DNA of 64,000 nt from sequence record PV805631.1. The stretch is one strand, 5' to 3'. The translations under genes were made by a program, and so were the position numbers. This document shows, in pieces, positions 1 to 64,000 of this stretch. How positions within the stretch are numbered: the first letter of the stretch is position 1; each line of letters starts with the position of its first letter. This DNA is from a phage. Below the pieces are notes generated by a model. It was not told the origin of the DNA, ran no database searches, and was given only the letters and a program-made list of their open reading frames with translations.

Positions 1-88
1 TGACAGGGGCTACACCCTTACACGTTAACTACCCCCCCGGTATGTTGACTCATGGGTGTACTACCCTACCCCACCTTACACGTTACAC

Positions 89-108
89 GTTGCTCCGCAA
101 CTTATGGA
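89..108 (+). promoter_or_regulatory. Candidate virion-RNAP early promoter hairpin (copy 1): GTTGC-TCC-GCAAC followed by TTATGGA
   Basis: Perfect 5-bp stem with 3-nt loop; same GC-TCC-GC core and TTRTGG downstream box recur at 768 and 4761; lies upstream of the first early ORF. Confidence 0.5.
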
Positions 109-144
109 CATGTCGTCCTATCATCAACTATTGGAGCTATCATC

Positions 145-468
145 ATGACTACTACCGCTACTGTACGTATGACCGCAGGAACTCTGCTGGGTACTGTTAA
201 CTCTGCTGCCACTACTGTGGCAGATTCATTCGGTGCTGCTACTAAAGCAGTTGGTATGCTTAATTCTTACGTAGCTACTATGGCAAAGAAACAAGCCATT
301 CGTACTAAATTAGAAATGCATACTTTCGAAAACAAATTAGCTGAAGAAACAGCTATGAACGAGACTCTTCGTAAGAAAAGTATCGAAGAATTCTGCAAAG
401 ATCCAGAAAACGCTCGTATCTATAACGCAGAATATTCAAGAATAATTGACATCCTGTCTAAAGACTAA
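145..468 (+). CDS. Hypothetical early protein (107 aa)
   Basis: ORF 52..468 trimmed to the ATG at 145, which has a GGAG 8 nt upstream and sits downstream of the hairpin at 89-101. Confidence 0.5.
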   Translation: MTTTATVRMTAGTLLGTVNSAATTVADSFGAATKAVGMLNSYVATMAKKQAIRTKLEMHTFENKLAEETAMNETLRKKSIEEFCKDPENARIYNAEYSRIIDILSKD

Positions 469-471
469 ATC

Positions 472-498
472 AATAGGAGGCTCTTCGAGCCTCCTATT
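472..498 (+). promoter_or_regulatory. Perfect 12-bp hairpin (AATAGGAGGCTC / GAGCCTCCTATT, 3-nt loop) just after the stop codon; no U-tract
   Basis: Inverted repeat read directly; stem contains an AGGAGG; related sequence reused in the terminator at 2621-2657. Confidence 0.4.
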
Positions 499-506
499 AA
501 GGGCAT

Positions 507-521
507 TAGATAGATAGATAG
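507..521. repeat. Short (TAGA)n microsatellite
   Basis: TAGATAGATAGATAG read directly. Confidence 0.6.
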
Positions 522-557
522 TCAGTTCTGTATAAAAAGATAGGAGAGATACCTACT

Positions 558-704
558 ATGAGCAAACTAAAAAACGCATTCATGCTGATTGTCAGTGTCC
601 TTGCACTTGTTGTTATGGTTTCCGTATACATTGGAAAACCTCTGGTAAACACTGACTATGGTAATGGTCAGAAAGTAAAATCCATCCTGCTAACGGATAA
701 GTAA
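558..704 (+). CDS. Small hydrophobic protein (48 aa), below the ORF-track cutoff
   Basis: ATG with AGGAGAG upstream; one predicted transmembrane helix (AFMLIVSVLALVVMVSVYIG). Confidence 0.3.
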   Translation: MSKLKNAFMLIVSVLALVVMVSVYIGKPLVNTDYGNGQKVKSILLTDK

Positions 705-767
705 AATGTCCCTGAATCTAAATCACCGTAAGAATCTCAGGATATCTTACATACCCTAAAAGACAAC

Positions 768-787
768 GACGCTCCGCGTCTTATGGA
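768..787 (+). promoter_or_regulatory. Candidate virion-RNAP early promoter hairpin (copy 2): GACGC-TCC-GCGTC followed by TTATGGA
   Basis: Same architecture as copy 1; about 100 nt upstream of the ATG at 889. Confidence 0.5.
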
Positions 788-888
788 TGATGTAAATGCA
801 TCCACTAATCATTGAAATTTTATCCTTTTGTTTGGGTGTTCTCACCGACGAGTTCACCCGTAAATCACATAAATCTGGAGAGTACAAA

Positions 889-1272
889 ATGTCTATTCAA
901 AAATTCACTTTCGGTCAATCTAACGCTGCTGCTACTTCTACTGCTAAAGCGGATAAACCTAAAGCTCAGTTCTGGCTGAACATTGGTTATGTAGCTAATG
1001 AAGGTTCCGATGATGAGAAATTCATCTCGCTGCCTACTGGTATTCCACTGGATACTCAGGAACCGCTGCCTACTAACAGCAGCAATGCTGACTTCCGTGC
1101 TATGCGTTGTGCACAGAACGATTTGTTGGAACAGTTAATTGAATATGCTCAGAACCTGAAACCAGGTGAAGAAGGTATCATTAACCTGCAAGTTCAACTT
1201 CGTCGTGTGAAAGCAGAGGCTGCTGACATCCCAGCAGACGAGAATAAATATGCTCGTAAACTGACTTTCTAA
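889..1272 (+). CDS. Hypothetical early protein (127 aa)
   Basis: ORF 796..1272 trimmed to the ATG at 889 with GGAGAG upstream; followed by a terminator. Confidence 0.5.
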
Positions 1273-1281
1273 TCAACAACT

Positions 1282-1310
1282 GGACTCCCTTCGGGGAGTC
1301 CTTTTATTTT
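1282..1310 (+). terminator. Intrinsic terminator (GGACTCCC-TTCG-GGGAGTCC + TTTTATTTT)
   Basis: 8-bp GC-rich stem, TTCG loop, U-tract. Confidence 0.7.
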
Positions 1311-1375
1311 AACTATGCGATAAACTAAGTAGAGTGTAATCCTACTTTTAGACGAAGAGAGACTAAGAGGTAAGT

Positions 1376-1870
1376 ATGAAGAAACCATATGGCTATTGGC
1401 AACAATCTGCTCACAATTTAGCCAAGATTCATGACCAATCTGATGCTCAGAGTAATGGGTACATATATGTAAAACATGATGGTAAAACCGTACTTTTACA
1501 TGTGTGGATTTGGGAGCAAATCAACGGTGCTATACCGGAAGGGTATGAGATAGACCATGAAAATGGTATCCGTTGGGACTGTAGGTTAAGCAACCTACGA
1601 TGCGTACCAAAGCTAATTAACCTAAGAAACTCAGCAAAACAAGCTAACAATACATCTGGTACTACTGGTGTAAGTATCATTACAGATAGGGGCAGAGAAT
1701 ATTGGATTGCTACATGGAGTGAGCCAGTTACAGGCAAGAAGAGAATGAAGCGCTTCAGTGTACAGAAGAATGGCTATGATACTGCTAAGCAGCTAGCCAT
1801 CAACTATCGTACAGAAGTTCTAAAAGATTTAATTAAAAATCATGACTATACAGAACGTCACGGTATGTGA
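1376..1870 (+). CDS. HNH homing endonuclease with AP2-like DNA-binding domain
   Basis: HNH_3-like motif (EIDHENG...NLR) plus AP2-like segment (NTSGTTGV...W); clear paralog of the ORF at 33131. Confidence 0.75.
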   Translation: MKKPYGYWQQSAHNLAKIHDQSDAQSNGYIYVKHDGKTVLLHVWIWEQINGAIPEGYEIDHENGIRWDCRLSNLRCVPKLINLRNSAKQANNTSGTTGVSIITDRGREYWIATWSEPVTGKKRMKRFSVQKNGYDTAKQLAINYRTEVLKDLIKNHDYTERHGM

Positions 1871-1947
1871 ATAGGGCTTTTCGACGAAGAGTCACTAAAA
1901 CTTAAACGTAAACAGAAGCAGATAACTTAGAGTAAGGAGTAATCAAG

Positions 1948-2133
1948 ATGCGTGTACTATGTAACCGTTATAATCCAGCAAAGTTAATCGACTTTATGGA
2001 ACCCATTGGTAGTCGTATGACTTATGCTGCTCGTTGGCAGGTATCCATAGCTGATAGTAGAGAACGTACTTATGACTACTTCTTTGTAGCTAAGCCTACT
2101 CGTAAACAAATCCGTAAACTTCACAAAGGATAA
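1948..2133 (+). CDS. Hypothetical protein (61 aa)
   Basis: ORF with AAGGAG upstream. Confidence 0.4.
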   Translation: MRVLCNRYNPAKLIDFMEPIGSRMTYAARWQVSIADSRERTYDYFFVAKPTRKQIRKLHKG

Positions 2134-2137
2134 TGCT

Positions 2138-2290
2138 ATGAAGCTACTGGCAGAGATTCTATGTATTTTATTAATGATACTGCTGGTAGCTGCATTTCCG
2201 TGGCTATTAGCCGTAGGTATAGTTATTGGTATGTTCCTAGCCAGAGCGAGTGATGCTCGTGGTAGGGATGAGCCAGGTGGAGATGTGTAA
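2138..2290 (+). CDS. Small membrane protein (50 aa), below the ORF-track cutoff
   Basis: ATG 8 nt after AAGGA; hydrophobic core LLMILLVAAFPWLLAVGIVIGMFLA. Confidence 0.3.
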   Translation: MKLLAEILCILLMILLVAAFPWLLAVGIVIGMFLARASDARGRDEPGGDV

Positions 2291-2322
2291 ACACTGCCGG
2301 AAGGGTATGTACGGAGGAACCA

Positions 2323-2496
2323 GTGATATTCACTAACATTGAAGATGCCATTGAAGAATGTATCTTCCGTAGATATCACACTGGAGTACAGAAACGACAC
2401 TATGGTGTTGTGCAACTCAATGGCTATCAAATGGCTGTAAGAATTGTACGTAACAATAAACCTTTTAACTTTATGTGGAGTACTAAACATGCGTAA
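2323..2496 (+). CDS. Hypothetical small protein (57 aa, GTG start)
   Basis: GGAGG 5 nt upstream of the GTG; open frame to TAA. Confidence 0.25.
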   Translation: MIFTNIEDAIEECIFRRYHTGVQKRHYGVVQLNGYQMAVRIVRNNKPFNFMWSTKHA

Positions 2497-2620
2497 GTCA
2501 TTAATCATGGGAACCAAAGCTGACGTACAGAAGATGAAAGAACGTCTGGCTGCTAAGAAACAGGCATCTGAACCAGTACGTAAGATTGTTACCTTCAATC
2601 ATCCGTGCATCAAATAGTAA

Positions 2621-2657
2621 GGAGTCCTCCAATAGGAGGCTCCTATTTTTTATTTTT
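2621..2657 (+). terminator. Intrinsic terminator (bulged stem containing AATAGGAGGCTCC, then TATTTTTTATTTTT)
   Basis: Stem-loop plus long U-tract. Confidence 0.65.
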
Positions 2658-2694
2658 GAATAGTTAGACATGTATTTAAATAGGAGAAAGAACC

Positions 2695-3003
2695 TTGAAT
2701 GAAATAGTATGCATACTTCCACACTTAGCTAAAGTAGCTGATAGGAATATACGGATACATTTACCCTTCCCATTAAGTAATCCATTTACTCGTAATGAAA
2801 GAACCACAGTAGAGGATATAGAGGTAGCTTATGAGGCTTACCTTCGCAATCGTCTTATTAGTGGTGACAAATTAATTACAGCAGAGATGGAAAGGATTGC
2901 TGGTTTTGTCACAGATAGTACAAAGAAACCTGTTGGTTTAATTGGTACTGAATCTGATGTTAACGTTATTCGTAAAATATTAATGGAGGCTCTAAGCCAA
3001 TGA
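2695..3003 (+). CDS. Hypothetical protein (102 aa, TTG start per ORF track)
   Basis: ORF track; AGGAGA upstream; start codon uncertain. Confidence 0.4.
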   Translation: MNEIVCILPHLAKVADRNIRIHLPFPLSNPFTRNERTTVEDIEVAYEAYLRNRLISGDKLITAEMERIAGFVTDSTKKPVGLIGTESDVNVIRKILMEALSQ

Positions 3004-3221
3004 TGTACATGAGCAATTATGGTATTTGCCCAGTCTGTAAGAAAGGACGTGGAGTTGCTAATCATAAGAAGTGTAGTCGTATATTGCAGAAACAACGGAA
3101 CCAGGAAGAATGGTCTAAGGTGCTGGAAAATCAGCACAAAGAAGAGAATCAACAGATGGCTGTTAAGGCATCTACTCAACGTATTCGCCGTATTAACTAT
3201 ATACAAGGATACCAAAAGTGA
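3000..3221 (+). CDS. Hypothetical Cys-containing basic protein (73 aa)
   Basis: ORF track; CPVCKK...C arrangement suggests a zinc ribbon. Confidence 0.4.
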   Translation: MMYMSNYGICPVCKKGRGVANHKKCSRILQKQRNQEEWSKVLENQHKEENQQMAVKASTQRIRRINYIQGYQK

Positions 3222-3475
3222 TTATTACATTCCCTGTAACTAAATCATTTAACTATATGGGACAAACTATTGAAGTCCCATTATGGGTTAAATATGTAGC
3301 CTTATTACCTCGTCCTCAGAAGAGTAAGAATGCCTCACTAATTGGATTTAGTAGAAAGCCTAAGCTAACTGAAAACTGTATTTGGAAGTCCAGCGGCAGA
3401 CAAGAAGAAATTGGTTTTTGTGACTATGTACCTCAACCGAATACAGTATATCTAACCCTGGAGAAAGTAGAGTGA
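3218..3475 (+). CDS. Hypothetical protein (85 aa)
   Basis: ORF track; stop/start overlap with neighbours. Confidence 0.45.
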   Translation: MIITFPVTKSFNYMGQTIEVPLWVKYVALLPRPQKSKNASLIGFSRKPKLTENCIWKSSGRQEEIGFCDYVPQPNTVYLTLEKVE

Positions 3476-3786
3476 ATAATATTGTAGTAGTACATGATAA
3501 TACATTTACTGACGTCGATAAGATGATGCGTAATATTGATTATGTATCTCAGACTAGTAAAGCATTTAATGAAAAGTTCATTATTTACTGTGAACCAGAA
3601 TCACCGCTGGTTCCCGTATTAAAGGAAGCTGGTCTACCCTTCTCTACAGAGAACTTCCCAGAGGAACCAGAGTATATGATCACATTCATATATGACTTAC
3701 ACGATGGCTCTCCTGCTAGTGAACTGGCTATGAACCAGTGGAGTAGTAAACGTCCTGTATATGCTTTCCAGGTACTTAAACCATGA
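3472..3786 (+). CDS. Hypothetical protein (104 aa)
   Basis: ORF track; stop/start overlaps. Confidence 0.5.
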   Translation: MNNIVVVHDNTFTDVDKMMRNIDYVSQTSKAFNEKFIIYCEPESPLVPVLKEAGLPFSTENFPEEPEYMITFIYDLHDGSPASELAMNQWSSKRPVYAFQVLKP

Positions 3787-4025
3787 TCTATGAAGAATAT
3801 TATGTATTCAAAAAAGGAAATGATTTTATAGCTATGCCCAATGATTACATGGATTGGCATACAACTCCTGTATTAAAAGAAGCATTTTCCGTACCTAACC
3901 TGGAAGAGGTTAATAAAGTAATGAACGGAGTAATGCTAACAAGAGGTATGGCTTACAAAATAGACGCATTAGAAGGAGCTTCTGTATGCAAAGTAACTAC
4001 ATCCATTGAGGTACTTAAACCATGA
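3783..4025 (+). CDS. Hypothetical protein (80 aa)
   Basis: ORF track; stop/start overlaps. Confidence 0.45.
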   Translation: MIYEEYYVFKKGNDFIAMPNDYMDWHTTPVLKEAFSVPNLEEVNKVMNGVMLTRGMAYKIDALEGASVCKVTTSIEVLKP

Positions 4026-4402
4026 AAGCTATCTCATTAGGTGATAACACCAATACTCTAATGGGTGAAACTGCTCGCTCAATTACTATTGTTAATAAAC
4101 ATCATGGTAAATCCGGTGAGTATATTGGGCGTGGCTCACCGTTAGGCAATCCATTCATCATTGGTAAACATGGAACCAGAGAGCAAGTAATTGCTAAGTA
4201 TAGAGTCTGGCTGCAAGAACAGATTGATAAAGGTAATCCAGCTGTACTGGATGAACTCAATCGTCTTGGTAATAAAGCCATTGACGAGAAAGGGCTGGCC
4301 TTACAGTGCTTCTGCTATCCCAAACCATGTCATGGTGAGGTTATTAAAGAGAAGCTCGTTCGGGCTATGTATAACTATTTTGTAGAAAATCCAAAAGGGT
4401 AA
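4022..4402 (+). CDS. DUF4326-like conserved phage protein
   Basis: YIGRGSPLGNPF motif and C-terminal C-x-C...C-H cluster recalled as typical of DUF4326; function unknown. Confidence 0.45.
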   Translation: MKAISLGDNTNTLMGETARSITIVNKHHGKSGEYIGRGSPLGNPFIIGKHGTREQVIAKYRVWLQEQIDKGNPAVLDELNRLGNKAIDEKGLALQCFCYPKPCHGEVIKEKLVRAMYNYFVENPKG

Positions 4403-35471: not shown

Positions 35472-38400
35472 AATTTACTAAGTTCACCCAAGGGTTCAGG
35501 TTGTGAGCACGAAGCCCCTGACCAAAGCCCCATGAGTAATCCAGACTACCCTTAGCAGCAATACTAAAGATGTTGTCCTGAATAGGTAAGCCAACGTTAC
35601 CAAACATGGTAGGAGTTGGAGCCAGCATCGCCATTGCTGCATGTACTGGGTTATTGCGAATCATGGACACTGCAACCTTAGCTGAACGAATCTTAAAGTT
35701 GTAGAACCACATTAAACCAACGCTTTCCATATACCCACGGAAACGGCCCGGCAGACGGTCATAGTTAATGAACTCTTCGGTTACACGTCCCAGTGCTTCT
35801 TCACGAGTCTTACCTTTACGCTGGGTCAATTCATCATAGATGATTGCTTTAGCGATAAAGTCAGAGTACTCAACCGTCTTCTGGATACCCTGGAACAGAG
35901 CAGTATCCTTAGTGATAAGTGCATAACGACCAGCAGCACGTACAGACTTAGGTAACTTATCCGCCAGCTTTTCCATGTATTCGTGAAGTTTACCTTCAGT
36001 AATCAGGATGTCATCACGACCAATACCAGCATCTGCAATTGAAGAGAACTCACCAGCTTCTATCAGAGGCCAGATACTCATACGCTTATGGCTATCAGTA
36101 ATGGACTGAATCTCAGCCTTAAGTTTACGAATCTGGTTCGGGTTAGTAGCTGCACGTAATTCTGCTTCTGCATCTACCTGACGTAAACGAGATTTAAGGT
36201 ATTGGTTAATCTCAGCAGTCTTCCGTGGAATGCTCTTAGCAATGTTCTTAACCGGTACACCACGAGCAACCATCTGGTAAAGGTTAGCCAAAAAGTTAAC
36301 AACAGGTACGACTACTGACTTAACTACAATCAGAGTCTTAGCATCTTTAACTAAATTTTGAACCAGGTTCTCACCACCCATTAAGTACTTATAGGCACGG
36401 TTACCGGCTAAACCCAGAATAGCTTTTTTAAAAGTATTAAGCGTTTCCGGGGACCAACGAGAATTACCAGACCAAGCATCACCAATCGAAGCTGCACGAT
36501 AGCCAAGTGCATCATTCAGCATGTCACGACGTACCCACAGTTCACCCTCACCAAACAGTTTTTCTGCTTTCCGTCGAGTTTCACTGTTCATCAGCTTAAG
36601 AGCATCAGCAGTTACTGGGTCCAGTTTAGAACCAAAAAGGTTCACGTACTGGGACTTATTAGCAGCAGACATCTTAATGTCTTCCTTGTACATGCTATAC
36701 AGGTTCTCAATCAGCATATCATTGAAACGCTGAGCCTTAGCTTCTTCCACCTGACGTCCACGCCATACACCAATTGCACGGGCAAGATGATTTTCACCTT
36801 CAATATGCTTCAGCATATTAGGGTTAATTGATTGCTCATAAGCAACCACATCACCTTTAGCATTATATACAGGCAGCAGTGGTTCATTACCACGTTCACC
36901 ACGAGCTAGTGCTTTAGCGATACGGTCTACAGAAGGCTTGTCAGTAATACGACCAGCTACCATGGAACCCATAGTAAAGCCTGTACCGAGGTCTACACCA
37001 CCAGCAGTATTACGAACGTTCTGTAGAATACCTTGTGAGAACGGAGCCTGTGCCTGTACTGGGGCAAAGTAGTAGCTACGTGCCAGACCTCGGTTAGCAG
37101 AGCTACCTTGATAAGTACCCAGACGAACATAGGACTTCTCTATCAAATCACCAAACTCGCTATCTTCAGCAACAACCAGACTAACACCCTGTTTAGTCTC
37201 ACTAGGGATATACCCTTTGTACTGGTTCAGGGTTGCACGCATATCAGACTTGGCTTTAGCCATTTCATCTTTACGCTGCCCAACCAGGTAAGAAGTAGCA
37301 AAGTCCATTCCCTCAACTTCTGTCTGAGCCAGTGAAGATAACATCTCACGGTCGGACTTGTTCATTGCTTCCAGTGCATACAGGGTAATAAGTTTATCCA
37401 GTTGAGCTACATCTACAATAGAACGAGTAGTCTTACGTTCACCCAGCATACGAGAGATTGCAGTAGCATTACGCAGCAAGTTTTTACCGACTGTGCCATT
37501 AATCATGTACTGAGCCAGTTGCTTAGATTTACGGTTAATCAGAGGCCAGTTACGACCAGCTTGTTTCTGCAAATCTGCTTCCAGCTTATTCACTTCACGG
37601 TCAACAATCTTCTGGTCTGAAAGCAGGTCACGAATTTCAGCCAGAGACATGGTGTCACGCAGGACAGCTAAGTCAGTTTTACCCATACCAGTGTACATTG
37701 CTTTCCACTCATCCTTAGTCAGCTTACGGCTGAACTTAGATGCGATAGTGGTAGGCAGGTGTTCACGGAACTGCTGACGGTCAGCCTGCACCTGTGCACG
37801 GACTGCTTTAATCAAATCGTATACAGAAGCATTGCTCTTAGTACGACCGGTTAAATCATTAACCAGGTCATGGAAAGGTTGCCATACTTTACCCTGGTTC
37901 ATTGCAACCATAACGCCTTCAGCTACGTTTGCACCATTCTTCTCTGTAGCAATAGCAGCCATTAGTTGTGCAGCATGAGCAGCACCTTTGACCAATGGGT
38001 TCTTGGTATTAGCTGCAACTTCACGAGCACTTTCTAAAACACGAGTAGACAGTACATCAATAGAGTCCACCAAATACTGGTTAGCACGGTCAATAGCATT
38101 ACCACTAGGAGTAGCAACGGAATCATAGAATGACTGTGCATTTAGGCTAGTCTGCATGATTGTTTGAGCCAGTGCATCCATACCTTCCTGTACGTTGGTA
38201 GCTTTGGTATCACCTGCTACACGAGCATTCAGACTAGCCATTGCAGCAGTACCAATGTTAGTCAGCATTGCATCAACGGTATTCCCAGATTTCTTATCTG
38301 CTTTCATAACAGGAATGTTAGCCAGTACGTTACGTACCTCTTCACTTACCATTGCCAGACCAACAAAGGTAGGCAGTATTGAAGAACGACCCTGTGCATC

Positions 38401-53552: not shown

Positions 53553-54755
53553 TTACAGAGGAGCAACAGTCTTAATCAGAGCCAGACGTTCCGGACGTTT
53601 AACCAGGATACCGTAGTACCACTTGATGGAGCTGAAGCCAGTCTCACCATACGGGTCATTACGGTCAGCAGTTTCTCGACCAGGCATCTTAGTCATGATG
53701 GAGAACTTAACAGACTTACCATCAGTCTGGAAACCAATGGTAGAGAAGGAGTCATCACCAACTACCAGCATCGGGAACACGTCATAGTGTTCTTCGCCAC
53801 TAACCATAGAAGAACGGTAACCTGGGTTAGTAGAGACTTGTGCACCAGCACCTGCCCAATGCAGCATCTCAGGAACCTGGATAATACGGAACTTGTCGAT
53901 ACAACCAATTTCACCATTCATCAGAGTACCAGCGTCAGCATAGTGCTGAACCTCAATGAATGCTTTGTTACCGAACAGGTCTTTCATCGCTTTCAGTTCT
54001 GGAACTAGTTCAGAACCAACGTACATTACACGAGTACCGCCAAGTACTTTGGTATCGGTAAGTTTAGAACCAGTGATGATAGTAGTCTGAGTCGGAGTAC
54101 GGTTCTCAGTAAGAATCTGGTCAAGACGCATCAGGTTCTTATAAGAAACTACAGACGGGGTAGCACCTTCACCCGTGATGGTAGCATCGGAAGTAGCAGC
54201 ACCTGCATACAGTACAGTACCAGCAGCAGCCAACAGGTCTTTCTGGAGAACAGCTTCAGTCAGCTGTACAGCACCGTTCATCAGTTCACGAGACAGGTGT
54301 TCTTTCAGTTGGTCATCAGAATCAAAGTCCAGGGACTCTTGAGTAAATTCGTAGAAGAAACCGAACTTATGGATGGAACCTTCACGGGACAGACGGGTAA
54401 AGCCTACACGGTTAACACGACCACCGTTCTCTGTCAGCAGAGGCAGTTTAGAAGTGATGTTACCAACGTCTCGGGAAGAACCATACAGGTTACCATTAAC
54501 GATGGTAGCACCATTAGCATCAATACCCTGGTCGTTGATGTTCTTATCGTCAAGCAGTGGAACGTACTCATACACCTTAACAGTCTTACCGTAGTTCTTC
54601 GGCATGTTAATAGTGTTAGCCAGTGGCATGAAGTACTGGTCTTTACGGGACTGAATAATAGCTTTCTTCAGCCAGTAATAGGTATTCATCTGGTCGGAAC
54701 CAGCACCATCAATGCTAGATTTCTGGCCGTCAATTGGGGCGTTATAGTTTAACAT
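53553..54755 (-). CDS. Major capsid protein (N4 gp56-like)
   Basis: 400 aa ORF downstream of scaffold-like and portal genes, flanked by a strong hairpin; synteny and size only. Confidence 0.6.
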
Positions 54756-54771
54756 ATCATCTTATTCCTGT

Positions 54772-55992
54772 TTAAAGACTACCCGGTACTGGGAGTTTAG
54801 CGAAATCTTCATCACTCATTGCGAGTGGGTTTACAATAGGTGTTGCTTTACGTGTAGCAGCCCGATTAAGGGAAGCTGCTTTAGCTTGCTCACTGTTAGC
54901 CAGAGTCTGCTTAGGTTGTGCTACACGCACTACCGGCTGAACCACTGGCTTAACTGCTTGTACCGGTTCTGGCTTAGCCGCTCGGTTAAATGCCCCTTGC
55001 TGTGTAAGGAGGTTACCGACGTGGTTATAAGCCTGAATGAACGGAGTACCTACCGGAATCTGGCCTAACATTTGAAGACGGTTCACTTCGTTTGCAATGG
55101 TGTCATAAATACCATTCTCACGTTGTTCGTGAATAGTCTGGAGTAGGCCACGATTCTGGTAAAGAGCTTCTTTACTGGCAGCATCCCATGTCGAGCCGAT
55201 AACACCTAATGTAGCTTGTCCTTCTTGAGTAGACTTTAAGTCGTCAATTTCGGTTGCAAAATCTGCTTCGGTGTCGGTAACACGGTGATTGCCACCCTGG
55301 TAGTTAATTTCTTCATCTGGGTTAAAGTCCAGAGGATCTGTACCAGAGTCTTTGAGCAACTTCTTAATGGCTTCAGGATTCTTTTTATCCAGGTCAATAA
55401 GGAAAGAAAGTTTATCCTCATCCATTAAACCGTTGTTCTGTAACATCAGCATTACCTTACGGTAAGGCTTTAGTTCTTGCATCTTGCGAGTATAGTTAGC
55501 ACCCATCTGCATCAGGCTAATGGCCTCCTCCGGTGAACGGGGAGTAATCACTTTGCCGTTAGCTTTAAAAGGAGCCATCAACTTCTCGTAACCTTCTTTA
55601 TAGTTGAAGTCAGCAGGCAGACCTTCAGACTGTTTGCCTTCTTCTTTCTGTTCCTGGCCTGGTTCAGTAGTAGAAGGTTCAGCTTTAGTAATCGGCTCAC
55701 CGTTACTATCAACTTCTGTGTCAACAACTTTATCATCAACTTTATCAGAAGTTAAAGAATTTGCTGAATCTTCTTCATCAGGTTCGGCTTCAGGGGGGGT
55801 TTCTTCGGTTGGTAGGTCTTCAACAGCAGGGGTGTCAACTTCTTCTTCAGGAGTCTGTACGCCGTTGGTTTCTGGGTTGTTCTGAGTGGAAGTATCTTCC
55901 TCAGCAATAATTGCTGGGGCTTCCATATTCAGAATCTCATCATCCGACATTGCGAGAATGTCGGAAGCTGTGGTTGCAGCTTCCGTAGTCAT
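54772..55992 (-). CDS. Scaffolding-like protein
   Basis: Acidic low-complexity N-terminus; between portal and capsid genes. Confidence 0.4.
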   Translation of the reverse strand: MTTEAATTASDILAMSDDEILNMEAPAIIAEEDTSTQNNPETNGVQTPEEEVDTPAVEDLPTEETPPEAEPDEEDSANSLTSDKVDDKVVDTEVDSNGEPITKAEPSTTEPGQEQKEEGKQSEGLPADFNYKEGYEKLMAPFKANGKVITPRSPEEAISLMQMGANYTRKMQELKPYRKVMLMLQNNGLMDEDKLSFLIDLDKKNPEAIKKLLKDSGTDPLDFNPDEEINYQGGNHRVTDTEADFATEIDDLKSTQEGQATLGVIGSTWDAASKEALYQNRGLLQTIHEQRENGIYDTIANEVNRLQMLGQIPVGTPFIQAYNHVGNLLTQQGAFNRAAKPEPVQAVKPVVQPVVRVAQPKQTLANSEQAKAASLNRAATRKATPIVNPLAMSDEDFAKLPVPGSL

Positions 55993-56011
55993 AGGAAATA
56001 TCTCCGGTTAA

Positions 56012-56356
56012 TTATTCGTCTTCAGGTTCAGCACGAACTGCGTCGAGTTCTTCTTCTACCTGTAGAATAACGTCAGCTTCGTTTTCGCCCATACGAATGG
56101 CAAGATCAAGCCAACGACGTAAGTGACCAGCAGCTTGAGCCATGTTCAATGCATCTGCACGGTTATTAGGTTCAAGCAGTGGGTCACCAGACTCTTGCAC
56201 GTAACGTGCACAATCTTCCGTACAGAACTGGCGAAGAATTACTTTACGGAACAGTGGATTCTCCAGAAGTTTACGTACATCTTCTGCATGTGCAACTGCA
56301 CCTTTAGCAGCTTCCAGTCGATGTTCCAGTCCAGCGATTGTTGATTCTTTACTCAT
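56012..56356 (-). CDS. Hypothetical protein (114 aa)
   Basis: ORF track. Confidence 0.45.
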   Translation of the reverse strand: MSKESTIAGLEHRLEAAKGAVAHAEDVRKLLENPLFRKVILRQFCTEDCARYVQESGDPLLEPNNRADALNMAQAAGHLRRWLDLAIRMGENEADVILQVEEELDAVRAEPEDE

Positions 56357-56369
56357 GTGAAGGTCTGCC

Positions 56370-58640
56370 TTACAGGTTCATGCCAAGAGCCGATGCTGGG
56401 TCTTGGCTAGGGTCATAGTATTGGGAACTAAGTGAATAAGCTGGGTCTTGCTGAGCAGCTAAATCCCGTTCTGGTATAGAGTTCACGTTAGTCAAAGTAT
56501 TATATCCAACAGCTGCAGATATGTTGGGGGTAGTTTCCCCTTCTTTAATAGGTGTTGTCAATGCCTTAGTTATCTGAAGGTTCTGGTTTCCTTGGGATTG
56601 TGCTTTTTGTTTTTCCATATCACGAGCATGTTTAGTACCAGATTCCTGTTCCAGATAATCCAGGTCTTTAAGGTCACCACTGGAAGCAGCCTCTTTAGCC
56701 TTAGCCATATTGAGTGCAATCTTACTTTGTAACTCTTCATTCTCAAGCTGTGCTTTCTGAATTGCCAATTGCTTAAGCTGTTCTTCCATAGGGTCTGGCT
56801 GTGGTTGCCAGGTACGTAACTCATGAGCCAGGTCGGGCATACGTTTAAGTTCTGCAATCTTAGCTACGAGAGATAACGTAATAGTTTGGTCAACCGTATT
56901 ACCCAATGTTTGAACCATGAAGCTCAAGTCCTGGGATTTCTGGTTATCAATTTCAGCAGTGTTGATATCAACCTCAATATCGAAGTTACCTTTAAGGTCT
57001 TCACGGTTAATCTCTACATACTGCTCGTTAGTAATACGTACTACTTCTTTCTCAGATAAGAACACAGCATTCATTGCACAAATCTTAGTACCAATGTCTG
57101 CCATGCCCTTAGCTAATCGGCGAAGGATTGCCATCTCACGTTTGGATGCTGCATCAAGTGCACCACGAATACCGGCAGCCACTTCCCCGTAAGCTGAACC
57201 AGTTACACCACCAGAGAATGCTTTAACACCAGTTAATGATTCAGCTTCCTGGTTTTGCATCTGGGTCATTATTATTGCCGACTGAGGTAACTCAGGGAAC
57301 TTATGTTCCATAATGGCCTGACTAGGATTACCCTGCATTGGGTTGTATTCGTAGTCTTGCCCATCGTCATATCGACGACGGTTTAGTGTATCCAACATCC
57401 CTTTAGGATAACCACGTTGACCGTTTGCACTTCGACCTAACAGGTCAATCATCCCACGCATAGTTGCACCAAGAATTGCTTGGTTATCCCCTAACAGTTC
57501 AGCATCAGCTTCACCGAAGAGTTCGCGTTTACGGGGCATGTAAGGAACAACTACTAAAGGTAATTTACCGTCAGGGAATGGGTTCCTCTCCATACGAATA
57601 AGAGTAGAACCAATCCAGGTAGCAACAATAGGTTCCAGAGAACCATCATCATTGATGTCGTAAAATCCCCAGTACTCATAAGCAACAACCTTCTTACGAA
57701 GTGCATCCTTAAACTGGAAGTCACTAGGAGTTTTACTTTCATGGTCTGGGTCAGTCATAGGACTGGAACTTTCCCAGTCAATCTTATCTAAATTGTGATA
57801 ACGGTCCTTATTCTTCATGAGGTCTGCTTTGCATGTCTCAAAGGAGATAACTGCATACAGAGCCTTATCCAAATCACCGTTACAGCTTGGGTCAATAACT
57901 ACGTTATTAGGGTTAAGCATTTCAACGGTAGGTCTGTTAACTAGTGCCTTCTCTACTTCTACTTCAGTAACTCCAGTCTGGATTGCATAGGTAGCTTCCC
58001 CAGTTTCATTAAAGTAGTTAACAGCTTCCTTAATATCTTCCGACATTGTCTCATCGTACTCACGAGGATTCTCTGCCTGAAGCTGTAAAGCCTGTTGAAG
58101 AACATCTGCTTGTTCCTGGTTCTCGATTGGATATAACTGGAAGACTGGTGTTTCTGTTTTAATCTTAACAGTCTTACGTTCCCAACCAATACGAGCAATA
58201 CCAGTACCGTCATCTACAACACTGTGTACGTAATCATCTACTAGTTTCACTTTATTAAGCTGGGTACGGAATTGGTAGTTAAGAACTAATTCATTCTGAC
58301 GTGCAGCTAACTCATCTTCAAAAGTAACCGGAGTTACTTTAAAGAGCTTATTAGACGAGAGAAAAGGCTCAGACAATGGAGCATATCGCCATTCTGCCTG
58401 ACGGCGAACCAGTCTGGGTTGGACTTGTGAGCGCCCCTTAACCTTTGGGGGTTTAGCTTTACCTTTAACTTCCATCAGGTCATTCCACTCACGAATCTGA
58501 GCCATAATTGCATCGTGAGCAGGTTTAGCTGATTCCAAATCACCTTTCAGTAATTGGATACTTGGTTCCTTCTTCCAGTCCGTTAGCTTCTCTGATTGAG
58601 CCGGGTCTGGTAAAGGCTTAAAAGTGTCTTGGTGTTCCAT
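56370..58640 (-). CDS. Portal protein (N4 gp59-like)
   Basis: 756 aa ORF upstream of scaffold-like and capsid genes; size and synteny. Confidence 0.6.
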
Positions 58641-58648
58641 AGTTAATC

Positions 58649-59149
58649 CTATTCAAAAAGTTTACGGTCAGCCTGAATTTGCTTACCCAACTCAATTAGT
58701 TGGTTGTCACGGAGTCTAACAGTTGCCCGGAGTTCTTCAACCAAACGTCTGCCTTCTTCAAGACTGTTGTCGAGTCTGGCTGCATGGCTTGCAAGACTTC
58801 TGCACTCAAGGGTTCCGGCTTCGGCTTGACGTTTATATACCGATGCTCGTTTTTCAGACTGTTGCATCCGGCTGTCATAATCACTGCTAACGCGAGCAAG
58901 CTCGCTTGCGTAATTACTCTCAGCCGTCTGCAACCGGGAAGTGAGTAACCCGACTTCATAACTATGGTTTCTTTGGAGAGCATTGTATTTGTCCTGTAGT
59001 TTTTGTGTTGCCTTCTGGTCTTCAACCTTTTGAGCATCCCACTTCTTTTGAACAGTAGACTGTCCGTTGGAATTGCCCCAAAAGTAAATGGTGGCCCCGA
59101 GGACCACCACCAGAAGATAAGGCCAACCTTTAGAGATTAGCATCTTCAT
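58649..59149 (-). CDS. i-spanin (Rz-like)
   Basis: N-terminal TM helix then charged coiled-coil; directly after endolysin; start among three nearby Met is uncertain. Confidence 0.5.
58696..58959 (-). CDS. o-spanin (Rz1-like) nested in the i-spanin gene
   Basis: Alternate frame inside i-spanin; signal peptide with lipobox-like MTAG-C, Pro-rich mature part. Confidence 0.4.
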   Translation of the reverse strand: MKSGYSLPGCRRLRVITQASLLALAVIMTAGCNSLKNEHRYINVKPKPEPLSAEVLQAMQPDSTTVLKKADVWLKNSGQLLDSVTTN

Positions 59150-59765
59150 TACATGCCTCCAGTGGTACATTACCGATTCGGTTAGCTACCCAACCATACG
59201 TAAAGTCTGGCATGTTCAATGAGGTGTAGTGGTTCAGTTGTTTAGCATCGAGTAACTTAATCATTACCTGACATGCTGCAACTTTGCCTCGTTTTTTCTG
59301 CAATGCTTTATATGCATTAACAGTACCTGCACCGACTTTACCATCAACTTGTATTTTAGGGTAGTCTTTGCCATCACGGGACATTTCATTAAGAGATTGC
59401 TGCAACCATTTAGCTGGTCTGGTTACACCGGTATTAACCCCAGCATCAACCAGTTTGTGTGTTATAGCAGGAGATATATCAGCGAAGGCTACGAAGTTAG
59501 GCTTAATAACGTAGTCATCAATGTATATCTCAGCAGCCATCTCTTTAGATAAACCCTTCATGGAACCATCCCAACCATACTCAGTAGCCAGAACTTCTTT
59601 ATGAGACTTAGCTACTGATTGGGTAATACCATGATTAGTTTCCCCACCTGGGTCACGAGGATTGTTTACGTACCCTCCTTCCATATAGAACACTGCCCCC
59701 AGAATAGCAGCGACAACTCCTCCCACTACACCCCCTTTTGCAGCAAGTTTCTGTTTAGCTTTCAT
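59130..59765 (-). CDS. Endolysin, GH108-type muramidase with N-terminal signal-anchor
   Basis: EGGYVNNPRDPGGETNHGIT matches the GH108 signature from memory; N-terminal hydrophobic GGVVGGVVAAILGAVF. Confidence 0.7.
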   Translation of the reverse strand: MKAKQKLAAKGGVVGGVVAAILGAVFYMEGGYVNNPRDPGGETNHGITQSVAKSHKEVLATEYGWDGSMKGLSKEMAAEIYIDDYVIKPNFVAFADISPAITHKLVDAGVNTGVTRPAKWLQQSLNEMSRDGKDYPKIQVDGKVGAGTVNAYKALQKKRGKVAACQVMIKLLDAKQLNHYTSLNMPDFTYGWVANRIGNVPLEACNEDANL

Positions 59766-60015
59766 GAGAATCTTCCTTTGGATGGAATCGTATTAGTCTG
59801 CCCACAATGTTTAAGGCAAATAGTGCGATTGTAATACTGGAACCATGTGGAATATCTTCAAGGATGTGACGAGGTAGTCCTGTTAGCATTGGTTGGATAA
59901 TATCCACTGTAGAAAACAGAATTAATCCAAATGCACTAATCTGAACAGATGCCCACTTCCAGGACTTCTTCCAGTTAGGAACTAGCCCTATTTTTCTTTT
60001 TAGCTTGCGAACCAT
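59755..60015 (-). CDS. Holin candidate (two TM helices)
   Basis: Basic N-terminus then two hydrophobic helices; start chosen at internal Met, so 5' end uncertain. Confidence 0.4.
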   Translation of the reverse strand: MVRKLKRKIGLVPNWKKSWKWASVQISAFGLILFSTVDIIQPMLTGLPRHILEDIPHGSSITIALFALNIVGRLIRFHPKEDSHES

Positions 60016-60332
60016 GCGAATATCTCCCGTCTTGCAGCAGCCAATACACCAATAATTGCACCTGCCCCAGCCCATACCCACTTACCAAAAATCCCAGCAC
60101 CTGCAACCTTATGTTTGATGGTGATGAACTCTTCAATGGTAGGTTCGGACTTAGTGATGCTCTCCTCTACCCGTTTAAGTCGGGTACTGAGGTCACCCAT
60201 AGACTCGCTTAGCTTTTTAATAGACTCTTCCATTTTCTCCCTATCCCTCGATTCACGAGTTTGGTTTTCGAAAATGTTTCTCAGTCTCTCTTCAAGTCTG
60301 GCTAGAGTTACGTTATCTGGTTCATTTCCCAT
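60000..60332 (-). CDS. Coiled-coil protein with C-terminal transmembrane anchor
   Basis: Charged helical N-terminal part, C-terminal GAGIFGKWVWAGAGAIIGVLAAA. Confidence 0.4.
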   Translation of the reverse strand: MGNEPDNVTLARLEERLRNIFENQTRESRDREKMEESIKKLSESMGDLSTRLKRVEESITKSEPTIEEFITIKHKVAGAGIFGKWVWAGAGAIIGVLAAARREIFAWFAS

Positions 60333-60579
60333 AGGGATTTTCTCAGGTTAGTTAAGTCGTAATTGACTAAAACAGTCTACCTAATGACTTGTTTTTGGTA
60401 CAACAAAAACCCACCCCCCGCAACCTAGTTGGGCTGGTTAAAGCCTGAAATATGGAACAGCAGTCACCAAAACAACAAAGACCATACTTAGGGTTGAGAC
60501 AACCATATGGGTGGCTATATGCGTATAATATTTTTAGGGAGCAAGTGTATACTTGCTCCCCAGAGTTATCTCAGAGTCA

Positions 60580-63114
60580 TCAGAACACATAATCCAGTTG
60601 CGTAAGCTGCTTCAACTGAATCTGCACGGTACTATCCAGAGTTACTGCCGGAACAGTTAAGCCAGAAACACCGATTGCAAAGTCCGCAATGAACCCGGTA
60701 GTAGGATTCTTTACTATATCCGCCCCAGTACCCCCAGAACCTGTACTTGCAAACTGAGTCTGCTTAGTACCATAAGCATTCCCTGTACCCGCAATAACTA
60801 GTTGCCATACACCCCTGCCGAGCGTACCTGGAATACTCAAGCTACCTGAACCAGCAGCCCGAAATATCTTGGTATTCTCATAGAACATACACTCTTGCAA
60901 CGTGCAGGTACTTCTCTGCCCGGTACTCACAACCTGATTACCCCGGAAGCTAAAGTTAGTCTGGTCATTCAGAACGAAGTCACACAGCTTAGCCTCTTGC
61001 ACCCGCACGTTCATATCCAGAGTGTTGGCATGAGCAATCAGGGACTTAGGAATACCTTGCACCTTATATCCAACAGCACGATAACTTAAATCCAGAGAGT
61101 TGTACTGCTTCACGGAGTTGCCAATCAGCTTAACCGTCTGTCCCCGATATACCTGGGATGCGCTAGCCCCAGCGTTAACTATAATAGCCTCGGTTGTGTT
61201 ATTGACAGTCTGACACTTAAGTACAACCGTATTGTGACTGATATCGATATCCTGGTACACCTGGTATGAGCTATCCCCTGCTCCGGTCGATATAGCTACC
61301 CCATCAAAAGCTCTAAGCTCGCAATAGTTGTTGTGAATCTTAACAAAGGGGTTCGGATACGTCGCTGCCGTAGCCTCCCCGCCGCCACCTACATCGATGC
61401 TGCGAGTATACTTTCCACCTATAAGCAGTCCGGAAGTAGCACTAGCAGGAATATCTCTGGAGCGCACATAGTTGTTGCTAACGATGAGGTTGTATGGTTC
61501 GTAGTTTGGATTCCAACCTGCCCCACATTTAGCATATATACCAACTACGCCGTGCTCAAGGCACATGTTCTCCGTGATGATTACCTGCCCACCACCGTGG
61601 AAGTCAATACACTTATGACGACAGTTCTTAATCTGGTTTTTAGCAACAACTACGTTCCTGATTCTTCGGTTACGCGCATGCGAAATACCGTACCCAGGGT
61701 CGTAGCTATCGTTCAGAACATCATCACCGTAAGGGTGTCCAATATTCTGGATATCGTTGGACTCATAGTTTAGTCTGTAGCCGGACAGTACGTAGATACC
61801 TGCACTGTAGCAATCCTTGATGGTACAGCCCATAACCATAACACCGTCAGGTACATCCGTGTCATTCGTATAATCCGTGCTGCCGTAGGTAGTCGCAATG
61901 TTACGGATGCCTATACCAATGCCACCAAAGTTAAAACCGGATACGTGCGAGTTCAGAATAAGGATGCCACGGCAGCCGCGTTGCACCTTGATACCATTAG
62001 CCCAGCTTCCGATGTAACCGCCAAGGAAAGTCCCCCAGGTACTGCGCCACCCATCCAACTGATTACCCGCGTCATCATAGTTAGGGAACTGTCCAGCTAC
62101 ACCAGCATAAGCACCAGACGTGTACGCACTGGAGTCAACGGAGTTATTAGGACCTGTAAACAGTGCTGTATCGTATCCGAAACGAGCCTCACCTTTCTCT
62201 GCATAACCAGTAGGCACATCTATAGCAGGGAACTTGTTAGGGCCACGCACAGTCAGCGATACAGTCACGTTCCGGCAATTTACAAGGGCAAGTCCGTCCA
62301 GCCCATGCGTATTCACAATTATAGTGCCGTTGGAGATACGAATACCTTCCTTATTTACCAGTGCCAGACACGGACTGTAGTTACGTGTACCGTCGCTGAA
62401 GTCAGGCTCAGTAGGGTACGTAGAAGCCAATGCAGGATTTTTTCGAACTAAATATGTCTTTCCACCTAAATCTATGTCGCCAGTAGCGGCGTCGAAACAT
62501 GCCTGCACTGCCAACGTATCGTCGGCAACGCCATCACCAACCGCCCCCCATCCACGTGGATCGCCATTATCACGCCAGCGAGCCATTTGTAGTTCGGGGT
62601 ATTTTGTTGCACCTTCAGGGTCTGAAATCTGTCCTCGTAGTACCGCATCCCCAACACTCACCCAAGCACCCAGACCAACGCCACCAGAAGTTTCGGGGGT
62701 TGAATCAGCAGGAACCTCTTTAGGCAATACACCATCCCATCGATACTTACCATCGGTAAAGACAACCAGTTCATTCTTGGTATTAACTGTTACACCAGTA
62801 TCAAATGAACCAGGTAAGGTTACATACTCTTCACGAGCAACAGCCAGTGCACCTAAGTCCACACTACCAGCAGAGTGAACTAATACACCAGCAGGACTAA
62901 GGCTTATAGCAGTAACACCTGAACCAATGTTAGCAGGTAAGGAATAAGCACGCTGTGTCCCTTTGTCGTAGATGACTTTGTAACCACTTAGTACAGCACC
63001 CACTGAGAAGTAAACAACCTCAGATTGTTTAACCCCAAAGTGACGTGCTATTGCTTGTTTATTGGTTAGGATTCCTGTTGAACCCTTACCGCCTTGTGAG
63101 AACATTTCGTTCAT
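60580..63114 (-). CDS. Tailspike / tail fibre protein with beta-helix-like repeats
   Basis: 844 aa; Gly/Asn/Ile/Val-rich repeated rungs typical of right-handed beta-helix proteins. Confidence 0.55.
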   Translation of the reverse strand: MNEMFSQGGKGSTGILTNKQAIARHFGVKQSEVVYFSVGAVLSGYKVIYDKGTQRAYSLPANIGSGVTAISLSPAGVLVHSAGSVDLGALAVAREEYVTLPGSFDTGVTVNTKNELVVFTDGKYRWDGVLPKEVPADSTPETSGGVGLGAWVSVGDAVLRGQISDPEGATKYPELQMARWRDNGDPRGWGAVGDGVADDTLAVQACFDAATGDIDLGGKTYLVRKNPALASTYPTEPDFSDGTRNYSPCLALVNKEGIRISNGTIIVNTHGLDGLALVNCRNVTVSLTVRGPNKFPAIDVPTGYAEKGEARFGYDTALFTGPNNSVDSSAYTSGAYAGVAGQFPNYDDAGNQLDGWRSTWGTFLGGYIGSWANGIKVQRGCRGILILNSHVSGFNFGGIGIGIRNIATTYGSTDYTNDTDVPDGVMVMGCTIKDCYSAGIYVLSGYRLNYESNDIQNIGHPYGDDVLNDSYDPGYGISHARNRRIRNVVVAKNQIKNCRHKCIDFHGGGQVIITENMCLEHGVVGIYAKCGAGWNPNYEPYNLIVSNNYVRSRDIPASATSGLLIGGKYTRSIDVGGGGEATAATYPNPFVKIHNNYCELRAFDGVAISTGAGDSSYQVYQDIDISHNTVVLKCQTVNNTTEAIIVNAGASASQVYRGQTVKLIGNSVKQYNSLDLSYRAVGYKVQGIPKSLIAHANTLDMNVRVQEAKLCDFVLNDQTNFSFRGNQVVSTGQRSTCTLQECMFYENTKIFRAAGSGSLSIPGTLGRGVWQLVIAGTGNAYGTKQTQFASTGSGGTGADIVKNPTTGFIADFAIGVSGLTVPAVTLDSTVQIQLKQLTQLDYVF

Positions 63115-63161
63115 ATAAACCTCTTTGTTTTTCTAAGAAACCCCGCCGAAGCGGGGGTATT

Positions 63162-64000
63162 CTACCTGATAATGAACTTACCGAGGCTCATATCATTTAT
63201 CAGAGTTGCAACTATGTTTGCCAGTTGGGTGGTTGTTAACGTGTTCACATCACCACCACGCAACTGTCCGGCGTTTGTGAATGGGAACTGCTGAGGCTGA
63301 GCGCTATTGTAAAACTGGTTCCCCTCTTCATACCGAGAAGACGGCGTAGAAGTGTAAAGGATTCCTTTAGTAGTCGCAGGAACAGAACAATTCACGATGT
63401 TTACATGACCAGCGATGCCAACGCACTCGATAGGGCGATCAACAGTACCAAACGGTTGAACACCAACCAGGCGATGCACGTTCAAGCTCTGAGCTGCCTG
63501 CGCGTACAGATAAGAACTAGGCTGCCCGTTAACACCTCTGATGTTCCAGTTGTCTACTTCAATGTGTCGGGCATTATGAATCTGACAGATTGCTTGACCG
63601 TCTGCATCAGGAAATGCACCAACAATACGCACGTTCTTCATAGTGATATCGGAAGTAGCTGTTGCGTTCAACCCGCAGTTAATCATAACAGCTTTAGAAC
63701 CAGATTGTGTGCAGTGGATTGTCAGCCCGTCGAATTCAATATCGCCTAGATTTACTGTGTGAGAGGAGCCATCCTTACGCAAAAAGAATACAGCCCAATC
63801 TGTGTGTCCTGTTATTAAGATATTACTAAATCGCAGGCGTGTGCAGACTACCGGATAATATCGACAGAGGATTGGCTGTGAACAATTCTTGATTGTGATG
63901 TTGTCATACGTGACATCACTGGAACCCTCAATCGCAATACCCGCATTACATGCTTCAATGTAAGCACCGGTCACACTTCCGTTGGTGAAGTTTGCGCGGA
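63162..64000 (-). CDS. Second tailspike-like beta-helix protein, 5' end beyond the window
   Basis: Frame stays open from 63974 to the window edge; beta-helix-like repeats (NITIKNC, VRIVGAF). Confidence 0.45.
   Translation of the reverse strand, partial: RANFTNGSVTGAYIEACNAGIAIEGSSDVTYDNITIKNCSQPILCRYYPVVCTRLRFSNILITGHTDWAVFFLRKDGSSHTVNLGDIEFDGLTIHCTQSGSKAVMINCGLNATATSDITMKNVRIVGAFPDADGQAICQIHNARHIEVDNWNIRGVNGQPSSYLYAQAAQSLNVHRLVGVQPFGTVDRPIECVGIAGHVNIVNCSVPATTKGILYTSTPSSRYEEGNQFYNSAQPQQFPFTNAGQLRGGDVNTLTTTQLANIVATLINDMSLGKFIIR

Follow-up and report, generated by a model that had tools for sequence, protein, structure and literature searches.

Positions 60580 to 64000 of sequence record PV805631.1, at the end of the 64,000-nucleotide stretch of phage DNA that was analysed as a whole (the window), very probably form the host-recognition cassette of a Gamaleyavirus of the G7C set, in which gene 66 and, after it, gene 63.1, both on the late minus strand, would encode a two-branched spike bearing a laterally acquired, O-antigen-cutting helix. 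The cassette is represented in the window by two long open reading frames (ORFs), a complete ORF1 at the place of gene 63.1 and an edge-cut ORF2 at the place of gene 66, as named in the annotation of Escherichia phage vB_EcoP_G7C (G7C), whose gene order is matched. The 278 residues of ORF2 are identical (100%) to residues 786–1063 of G7C gp66, with a nucleotide identity of ~98–99%, and ORF1 combines the N-terminus of G7C gp63.1 with a body of different origin. The branched gp63.1–gp66 apparatus and the Alt63-type exchange of an esterase for a depolymerase are already published, and the locus contains nothing beyond this published knowledge.

Genome backbone and gene layout

In nucleotide alignment, the window corresponds to the leftmost 64 kb of the genome of a Gamaleyavirus (an N4-like podophage, Schitoviridae), and its alignment with G7C begins at position 1, with nucleotide identities of 99.8–99.9% for 1–34 kb and 97.6–98.9% for the late region. 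The one break in similarity to G7C in the part examined runs from 60409/60422 to 62764/62813, and from 62813 rightwards the nucleotide identity is 99.3%. The two spike genes lie adjacent on the late strand; on the gene 63 side they are followed, downstream of ORF1 and in G7C synteny, by gene 63 and the genes for the holin, endolysin, spanins and portal, and the gene 67 side is past the window edge.

Both long ORFs of the region are encoded on the minus strand. ORF1 extends from an ATG at 63114 to a TGA at 60580 and is complete with 844 amino acids, and ORF2 is open in frame from the window edge to a TAG at 63162–63164, giving 278 codons (the ORF list shows it as 63162–63974 because listing begins at the first internal GTG). 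ORF2 is the upstream gene in transcription order, and the N-terminal ~785 amino acids of the protein, whose full-length G7C homologue has 1063, fall outside the window. A preliminary description of this DNA, made from the sequence alone, had proposed two consecutive tailspike genes in a podophage, the second cut by the window edge. The pair of spike genes at 60580–64000 was borne out, with the strand and the gene order, absent from that description, now supplied; the phage proved to be an N4-type podovirus resembling G7C; the two proteins carry, or are members of, the Tail_spike_N/TSP1–gp66 system; and the missing end of the truncated gene is the N-terminus, the last 278 codons being present. 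The same description regarded both ORFs as rich in short Gly/Asn/Val/Ile repeats. The bias in composition is genuine, these four residues accounting for 34.1% (ORF1) and 33.5% (ORF2) of the protein, compared with 24.8 ± 3.2% for the 24 window ORFs of at least 200 amino acids, but literal sequence repeats were found in neither ORF1 nor ORF2, the periodicity being structural. The coordinates of the features are collected in Table 1.

Table 1. Coordinates of the spike genes, their subdomains and the flanking elements in the window
Feature	Coordinates	Strand	Evidence
Gene 63.1, Alt63-type allele, 844-aa (amino acid) tailspike: putative N-terminal docking head, modelled right-handed beta-helix and C-terminal beta domain	60580..63114	-	
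ORF1 aa 1–92, first head subdomain	62839..63114	-	BLASTP against G7C gp63.1, 100% identity
ORF1 aa 93–165, second head subdomain, Pfam Tail_spike_N	62620..62838	-	
ORF1 aa 190–844, predicted beta-helix catalytic/receptor-binding module and C-terminal beta domain	60580..62547	-	
gp66–gp63.1 spacer, 47 nt	63115..63161	-	
gp66 C-terminal 278 codons and stop, distal part of probable beta-helix and C-terminus	63162..64000	-	
12-bp hairpin, 18 nt past the ORF1 stop	60535..60562	-	

Away from the spike genes, a few further differences from G7C were observed. Near the left end of the window, ~365 bp of G7C are absent (window 696–706 versus G7C 790–1156), including the ORF gp1.2 (G7C 843–1058), and ~78 bp around G7C 468–546 are absent at window 461–468; both gaps have the appearance of short deletions within the early region or the terminal-repeat area. 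In addition, ~250 bp of G7C (35933–36188) are missing or rearranged at window 35436–35468. In G7C, this segment separates the early from the late transcription unit, which converge on it, and carries annotated bidirectional terminators.

Mosaic structure of ORF1

Comparison of ORF1 with G7C gp63.1 by BLASTP gave 100% identity for amino acids 1–92, ~50% for amino acids 93–165 and no similarity for the remainder, which has none to the SGNH esterase of G7C. ORF1 matches the Pfam family Tail_spike_N (PF18668), and, among solved structures, its head matches those of G7C gp63.1 (4qnl, E-value 4e-75) and of tailspike protein 1 (TSP1) of the Kuttervirus CBA120 (4oj5, E-value 2e-85). Amino acids 1–92, given their identity to G7C, may mediate docking on gp66, and the second head subdomain is nearer to CBA120 TSP1 than to G7C. 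The right-hand recombination junction is located at ~62820–62840, within the head domain. In a three-way alignment across this junction, the DNA for amino acids ~95–160 closely resembles neither G7C nor the Enterobacter allele, which points to more than two parents; a simple two-parent origin of ORF1 was dropped, since neither allele is a near donor for this part. On the other side of the body, the ~150-nt stretch 60422–60572 holding the 3' hairpin matches neither G7C nor the donor-like allele of Enterobacter phages; it has a separate origin, with partial similarity to phage ST4 and the ends of Enterobacter phage SDFMU_Pec.

The body of ORF1 (amino acids ~190–844) shows amino acid identities of 91% to the spikes of Enterobacter T7-like phages, 90% to the tail spike of Salmonella phage P46FS4, 71% to that of coliphage Peacock, ~69% to those of Shigella boydii phages and 44% to that of Hf4s. 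In Enterobacter phage vB_Ecl_MII_002 (1501–3684) and in records OP272490–OP272493, the homologous spike gene is split in the annotation into many short "hypothetical proteins". This fragmentation presumably reflects frameshift sequencing errors, and the spike genes are effectively unannotated.

Fold of ORF1

The right-handed beta-helix of the ORF1 central domain was confirmed in an AlphaFold2 (AF2) model with a mean predicted local distance difference test score (pLDDT) of 83.3, the AF2 models used in this study being monomers only. Foldseek, which had been suggested as a check on the fold, matched the ORF1 model to the tailspike structures CBA120 TSP1/3/4 with E-values of ~1e-25. The claim of a beta-helix in both proteins consequently stands for ORF1, through the AF2 model and Foldseek, and as probable only for ORF2, for which the Pfam match to GH28 is at the cutoff and that to Beta_helix is under it.

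The closest folds to the ORF1 body are epimerases/lyases. These include the A-module of the mannuronan C5-epimerase AlgE4 (2PYG), an alginate epimerase/lyase (8JA4) and the Vibrio cholerae lyase RbmB (9OZD), which share only 15–18% identity with ORF1, are neither phage proteins nor trimeric spikes, and have no verifiable catalytic motif in common with ORF1. A clean profile of the ORF1-type helix (A4) left the catalytic body unmatched in the PDB and found only the N-terminal head and XD domains, and a 137-amino-acid core fragment of ORF1 gave no PDB match. Full-length matches to 9vvr and to the K5 lyase 2x3h, obtained with an earlier profile (A1), were artefacts that were lost with profile A4; they were rejected because A1 held spikes with unrelated bodies, such as that with the UE-S5a K5 lyase.

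Proposed activity of ORF1 and its relation to Alt63

Phage Alt63 was found as a contaminant in a G7C stock and is nearly identical to G7C, its gp63.1 retaining the N-terminus and carrying an unrelated C-terminal body, together with a G7C-type gp66 (bioRxiv 10.1101/542787). The purified protein, gp63.1A, turns the lipopolysaccharide ladder of E. coli 4s into molecules with a single O-unit, and phages with the Alt63-type allele grow on a non-acetylated wclK mutant that resists G7C (bioRxiv 10.1101/542787). The window agrees with the description of Alt63 in every testable respect, namely a G7C-like backbone, a replaced gp63.1 body and a G7C-type gp66. Furthermore, the stretch 54015–60409 (approximately gene 56 to gene 63) is 97.6% identical to G7C, compared with 99.8% in the early region, which agrees with the published remark that the Alt63 segment of genes 52–63 resembles other phages of the G7C set more than G7C itself (bioRxiv 10.1101/542787), and would represent hidden mosaicism. 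The suggestion that ORF1 is a possible depolymerase is supported by its modelled beta-helix fold and by the literature on the matching Alt63-type gp63.1 (bioRxiv 10.1101/542787). In addition, Peacock (T7-like) and Hf4s (P22-like), which are unrelated phages on E. coli 4s, use the helix family of ORF1, and this sharing of helix family and host provides independent support for specificity towards the O22-like O-antigen.

Regarding the chemistry, ORF1 is on balance expected to act by beta-elimination at the one glucuronic acid residue in each O-unit, i.e., as a lyase, and this reaction was ranked above hydrolysis. The E. coli 4s O-unit contains one GlcpA (glucuronic acid), so that beta-elimination is chemically possible, and a review from the group that described Alt63 names its gp63.1 domain a classical depolymerase (lyase) (PMC10743462). 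There is a substantial though lower chance that ORF1 is instead an O-antigen endoglycosidase (hydrolase), as are the tailspikes of P22, Sf6, HK620 and CBA120, in which case its architecture and role would otherwise be the same. The polar residues of the ORF1 body that are identical in at least 96% of 28 aligned sequences include D414, D465, Y475, R481, K501, D504, H506, Y527, E539, R553 and E599, and the cluster K501/D504/H506/Y475/R481 is a candidate catalytic site on the basis of this conservation.

Several points weigh against the proposed O-antigen-cutting cassette. The phage is most probably Alt63 or a sibling, a likeness drawn from published description only, and the evidence for depolymerisation by gp63.1A comes from one preprint, an earlier paper by the same group having termed the domain only a "predicted lyase" (PMC6393563). 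The exact ORF1 protein is absent from the collections searched, one of them of 15 billion sequences, with a 90% cluster representative as the best match, and among the phage records searched none carries the ORF1 allele within a G7C backbone. The ORF1 helix has no sequence homologue in the PDB, where searches with ORF1 met only the N-terminal head, and none of its catalytic residues is assignable. Finally, position 64000 cuts off the first two thirds of gp66, in which the docking domains are located.

Identity and possible roles of the gp66 distal module

ORF2 matches PHROG 12242, "tail protein", with an E-value of 2.7e-72. Its Pfam match to GH28 has 22.9 bits, exactly at the cutoff, and covers profile positions 264–315 of 324 only, and its match to Beta_helix has 15.3 bits. 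A relative with 68% identity (P0257) reaches 28.9 bits for Beta_helix across the homologous stretch, and another (P0264) is also above the cutoff. In the AF2 model of a full-length gp66 homologue with 84% identity, the pLDDT is 70–92 over residues ~700–1010, all of which form short regular beta-strands, and 59.7 overall. With this model, which is poor outside 700–1010, Foldseek matched CBA120 TSP4-N and TSP1/3 at E-values of ~1e-6 and the HK620 tailspike at 0.04. From the model and the profile matches, the distal module of ORF2 is a probable beta-helix. GH28 enzymes carry the signature motifs NTD, G/QDD, GHG and RIK. Membership of gp66 in GH28 was rejected, with no signature motif in full-length G7C gp66 and a Pfam match at the non-catalytic end of the profile. 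By sequence, the module has no PDB homologue, the 278-amino-acid fragment giving no match and the gp66 family profile (A2) meeting head and XD domains only.

The module is also rare, with 9 relatives among 1.84 billion cluster representatives scanned exhaustively with HMMER; a word-indexed search with the 278-amino-acid fragment returned two partial proteins only, and a full-length G7C gp66 query and the exhaustive scan were needed. Among sequenced phages, the full-length module occurs only in G7C, Shigella phage MK-13 (94%) and Enterobacter phage fGh-Ecl02 (88%). Its relatives bear a Tail_spike_N or a P22 head-binding domain at the N-terminus, P0261 being a P22-type spike, and many charged residues are invariant along the module. 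The 2017 work of Prokhorov and colleagues is said to have found both spikes essential on the single host 4s.

A role without enzymatic activity has a nearly even chance for the C-terminal module of gp66. It would then serve in structure or binding, for instance as an adhesin for a secondary receptor or as a transmitter of the trigger, and the main job of gp66 would be to anchor gp63.1 and relay its signal to the tail. This agrees with the literature view that the conformational signal of gp63.1 passes via gp66 to the neck (PMC6393563) and with the outcome of the searches, which gave no catalytic family assignment. However, four C-terminal alleles of gp66 circulate among the phages of the G7C set on the same host (bioRxiv 10.1101/542787), and the module is exchanged among phage families in the manner of a specificity domain.

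It is less likely that the module is a second active depolymerase for another surface glycan, which would equip the virion with two enzymatic specificities and, in latent form, a second host range. The probable beta-helix, the use of the module as the receptor-binding body in the spikes of MK-13, fGh-Ecl02 and P0261, its invariant charged residues and the hypothesis that the G7C gp66-type appendage broadens host range (PMC11654681) would favour such an enzyme, but no ligand or activity has been reported in the literature, the phages of the G7C set have a very narrow host range (bioRxiv 10.1101/542787), the GH28 match fails for the reasons given above, and the homologue model is of low confidence overall. 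In a wider form, the proposal that this rare module, common to spikes of S. boydii Ackermannviridae-type, Enterobacter and P22-type phages, represents a second, uncharacterised specificity for degrading or binding a glycan is likewise doubtful.

Proposed working of the two-branched spike

According to summaries of the work on G7C (PMC8825819; PMC6393563), the N-terminal part of gp66 is the virion anchor by which the protein is attached to the tail, XD2 and XD3 domains are described in gp66, and gp63.1 docks on XD3, which is needed for its binding. The branched adsorption apparatus suggested in the preliminary description is precisely what is established for G7C. A physical complex of ORF1 and gp66 in the present phage may be expected by analogy, the interacting parts identified in the window being identical to those of G7C. 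Based on these correspondences, a possible sequence of events is proposed. A gp66 trimer would be fixed to the tail through its N-terminal part, and its XD3-type domain would bind the N-terminal head of a gp63.1 trimer to form the two-branched spike. In the gp63.1 branch, the G7C docking head (amino acids 1–92) is kept, and from amino acid ~93 a laterally acquired right-handed beta-helix replaces the SGNH esterase. This helix would bind the O-polysaccharide of E. coli 4s, which is O22-like, and cut its backbone, so that the virion would descend to the outer membrane and infection would be independent of O-acetylation. The signal could then be relayed via gp66 to the neck, following the literature view (PMC6393563). 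The gp66 branch would end in the second, rare, probable beta-helix module. Such an exchange of an esterase for a depolymerase shifts the requirement from acetylated to any O22-like O-antigen and leaves the other virion proteins untouched (PMC10743462).

Spacer and hairpins

The spacer between the two genes contains a hairpin (CCCCGC-TTCG-GCGGGG, 63141–63156) followed by UUUCUU, which was recognised in the sequence and by a terminator-like scan match, and a ribosome-binding site (RBS), AAGAGG, at 63120–63125. The folding energy of the hairpin is −14.9 kcal/mol, with a z-score of only −1.45. The same hairpin-bearing spacer element is annotated in G7C, and it has been considered as a recombination boundary (bioRxiv 10.1101/542787). 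A comparable arrangement occurs at 1–4066 of a 13.5-kb metagenome contig from the ENA (L003), where a spike gene, a GC hairpin with a TTCG loop and an RBS are followed by an ORF1-like spike with 90% identity to ORF1. The body of the upstream spike is unrelated to gp66 and the portal is of the SU10 type (phiEco32-like). This layout suggests that a hairpin-delimited two-spike cassette moves between podophage families. The 3' hairpin past the ORF1 stop is considerably more stable than its shuffled versions (−21.3 kcal/mol, z-score −6.0, with 0 of 200 shuffles equally stable); it is without a subsequent U-tract, and its role as a terminator is putative only.

Comparison with known systems

Among the closest known systems is gp63.1–gp66 of G7C (Prokhorov et al. 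2017; PDB 4QNL), which has the backbone in common and the locus at the same place, flanked by genes 63 and 67; the visible part of gp66 is identical, as is the gp63.1 head over amino acids 1–92. In contrast, G7C gp63.1 bears an SGNH esterase, which removes acetyl groups from the O-antigen and leaves the chain uncut, whereas a beta-helix without sequence similarity to that enzyme is predicted here. Alt63 gp63.1A (bioRxiv 10.1101/542787; PMC10743462) is alike point by point, as far as its description allows, with best relatives in phages of Enterobacter, Salmonella, Shigella and E. coli, and phages N4G2 and Sz33 have the same allele type as Alt63 and are more diverged from G7C. The spikes TSP1–TSP4 of CBA120 (4OJ5, 6NW9, 5W6H and 7REJ) share with ORF1 a homologous N-terminal head (D1/D2, PF18668), and with the gp66 family the XD-type docking domains, and the overall plan is again one of head, neck and beta-helix. 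On the other hand, the four spikes of CBA120, a myovirus, sit on the baseplate, and the catalytic bodies are unrelated in sequence. The tailspikes of Peacock and Hf4s belong to the helix family of ORF1 and serve on the same host O-antigen, whereas they possess other N-terminal adaptors (T7 gp17-type and P22 head-binding, respectively) and form a single unbranched spike.

Significance

The locus is a clean worked example of the exchange of receptor-binding bodies among N4-like, T7-like, P22-like, phiEco32-like and Ackermannviridae-type phages, in which the exchange junction falls inside the conserved head domain. If a second specificity of gp66 were true, it would account for the fact that gp66 alleles swap as often as gp63.1 alleles, and would provide the phages of the G7C set with a cryptic second receptor.

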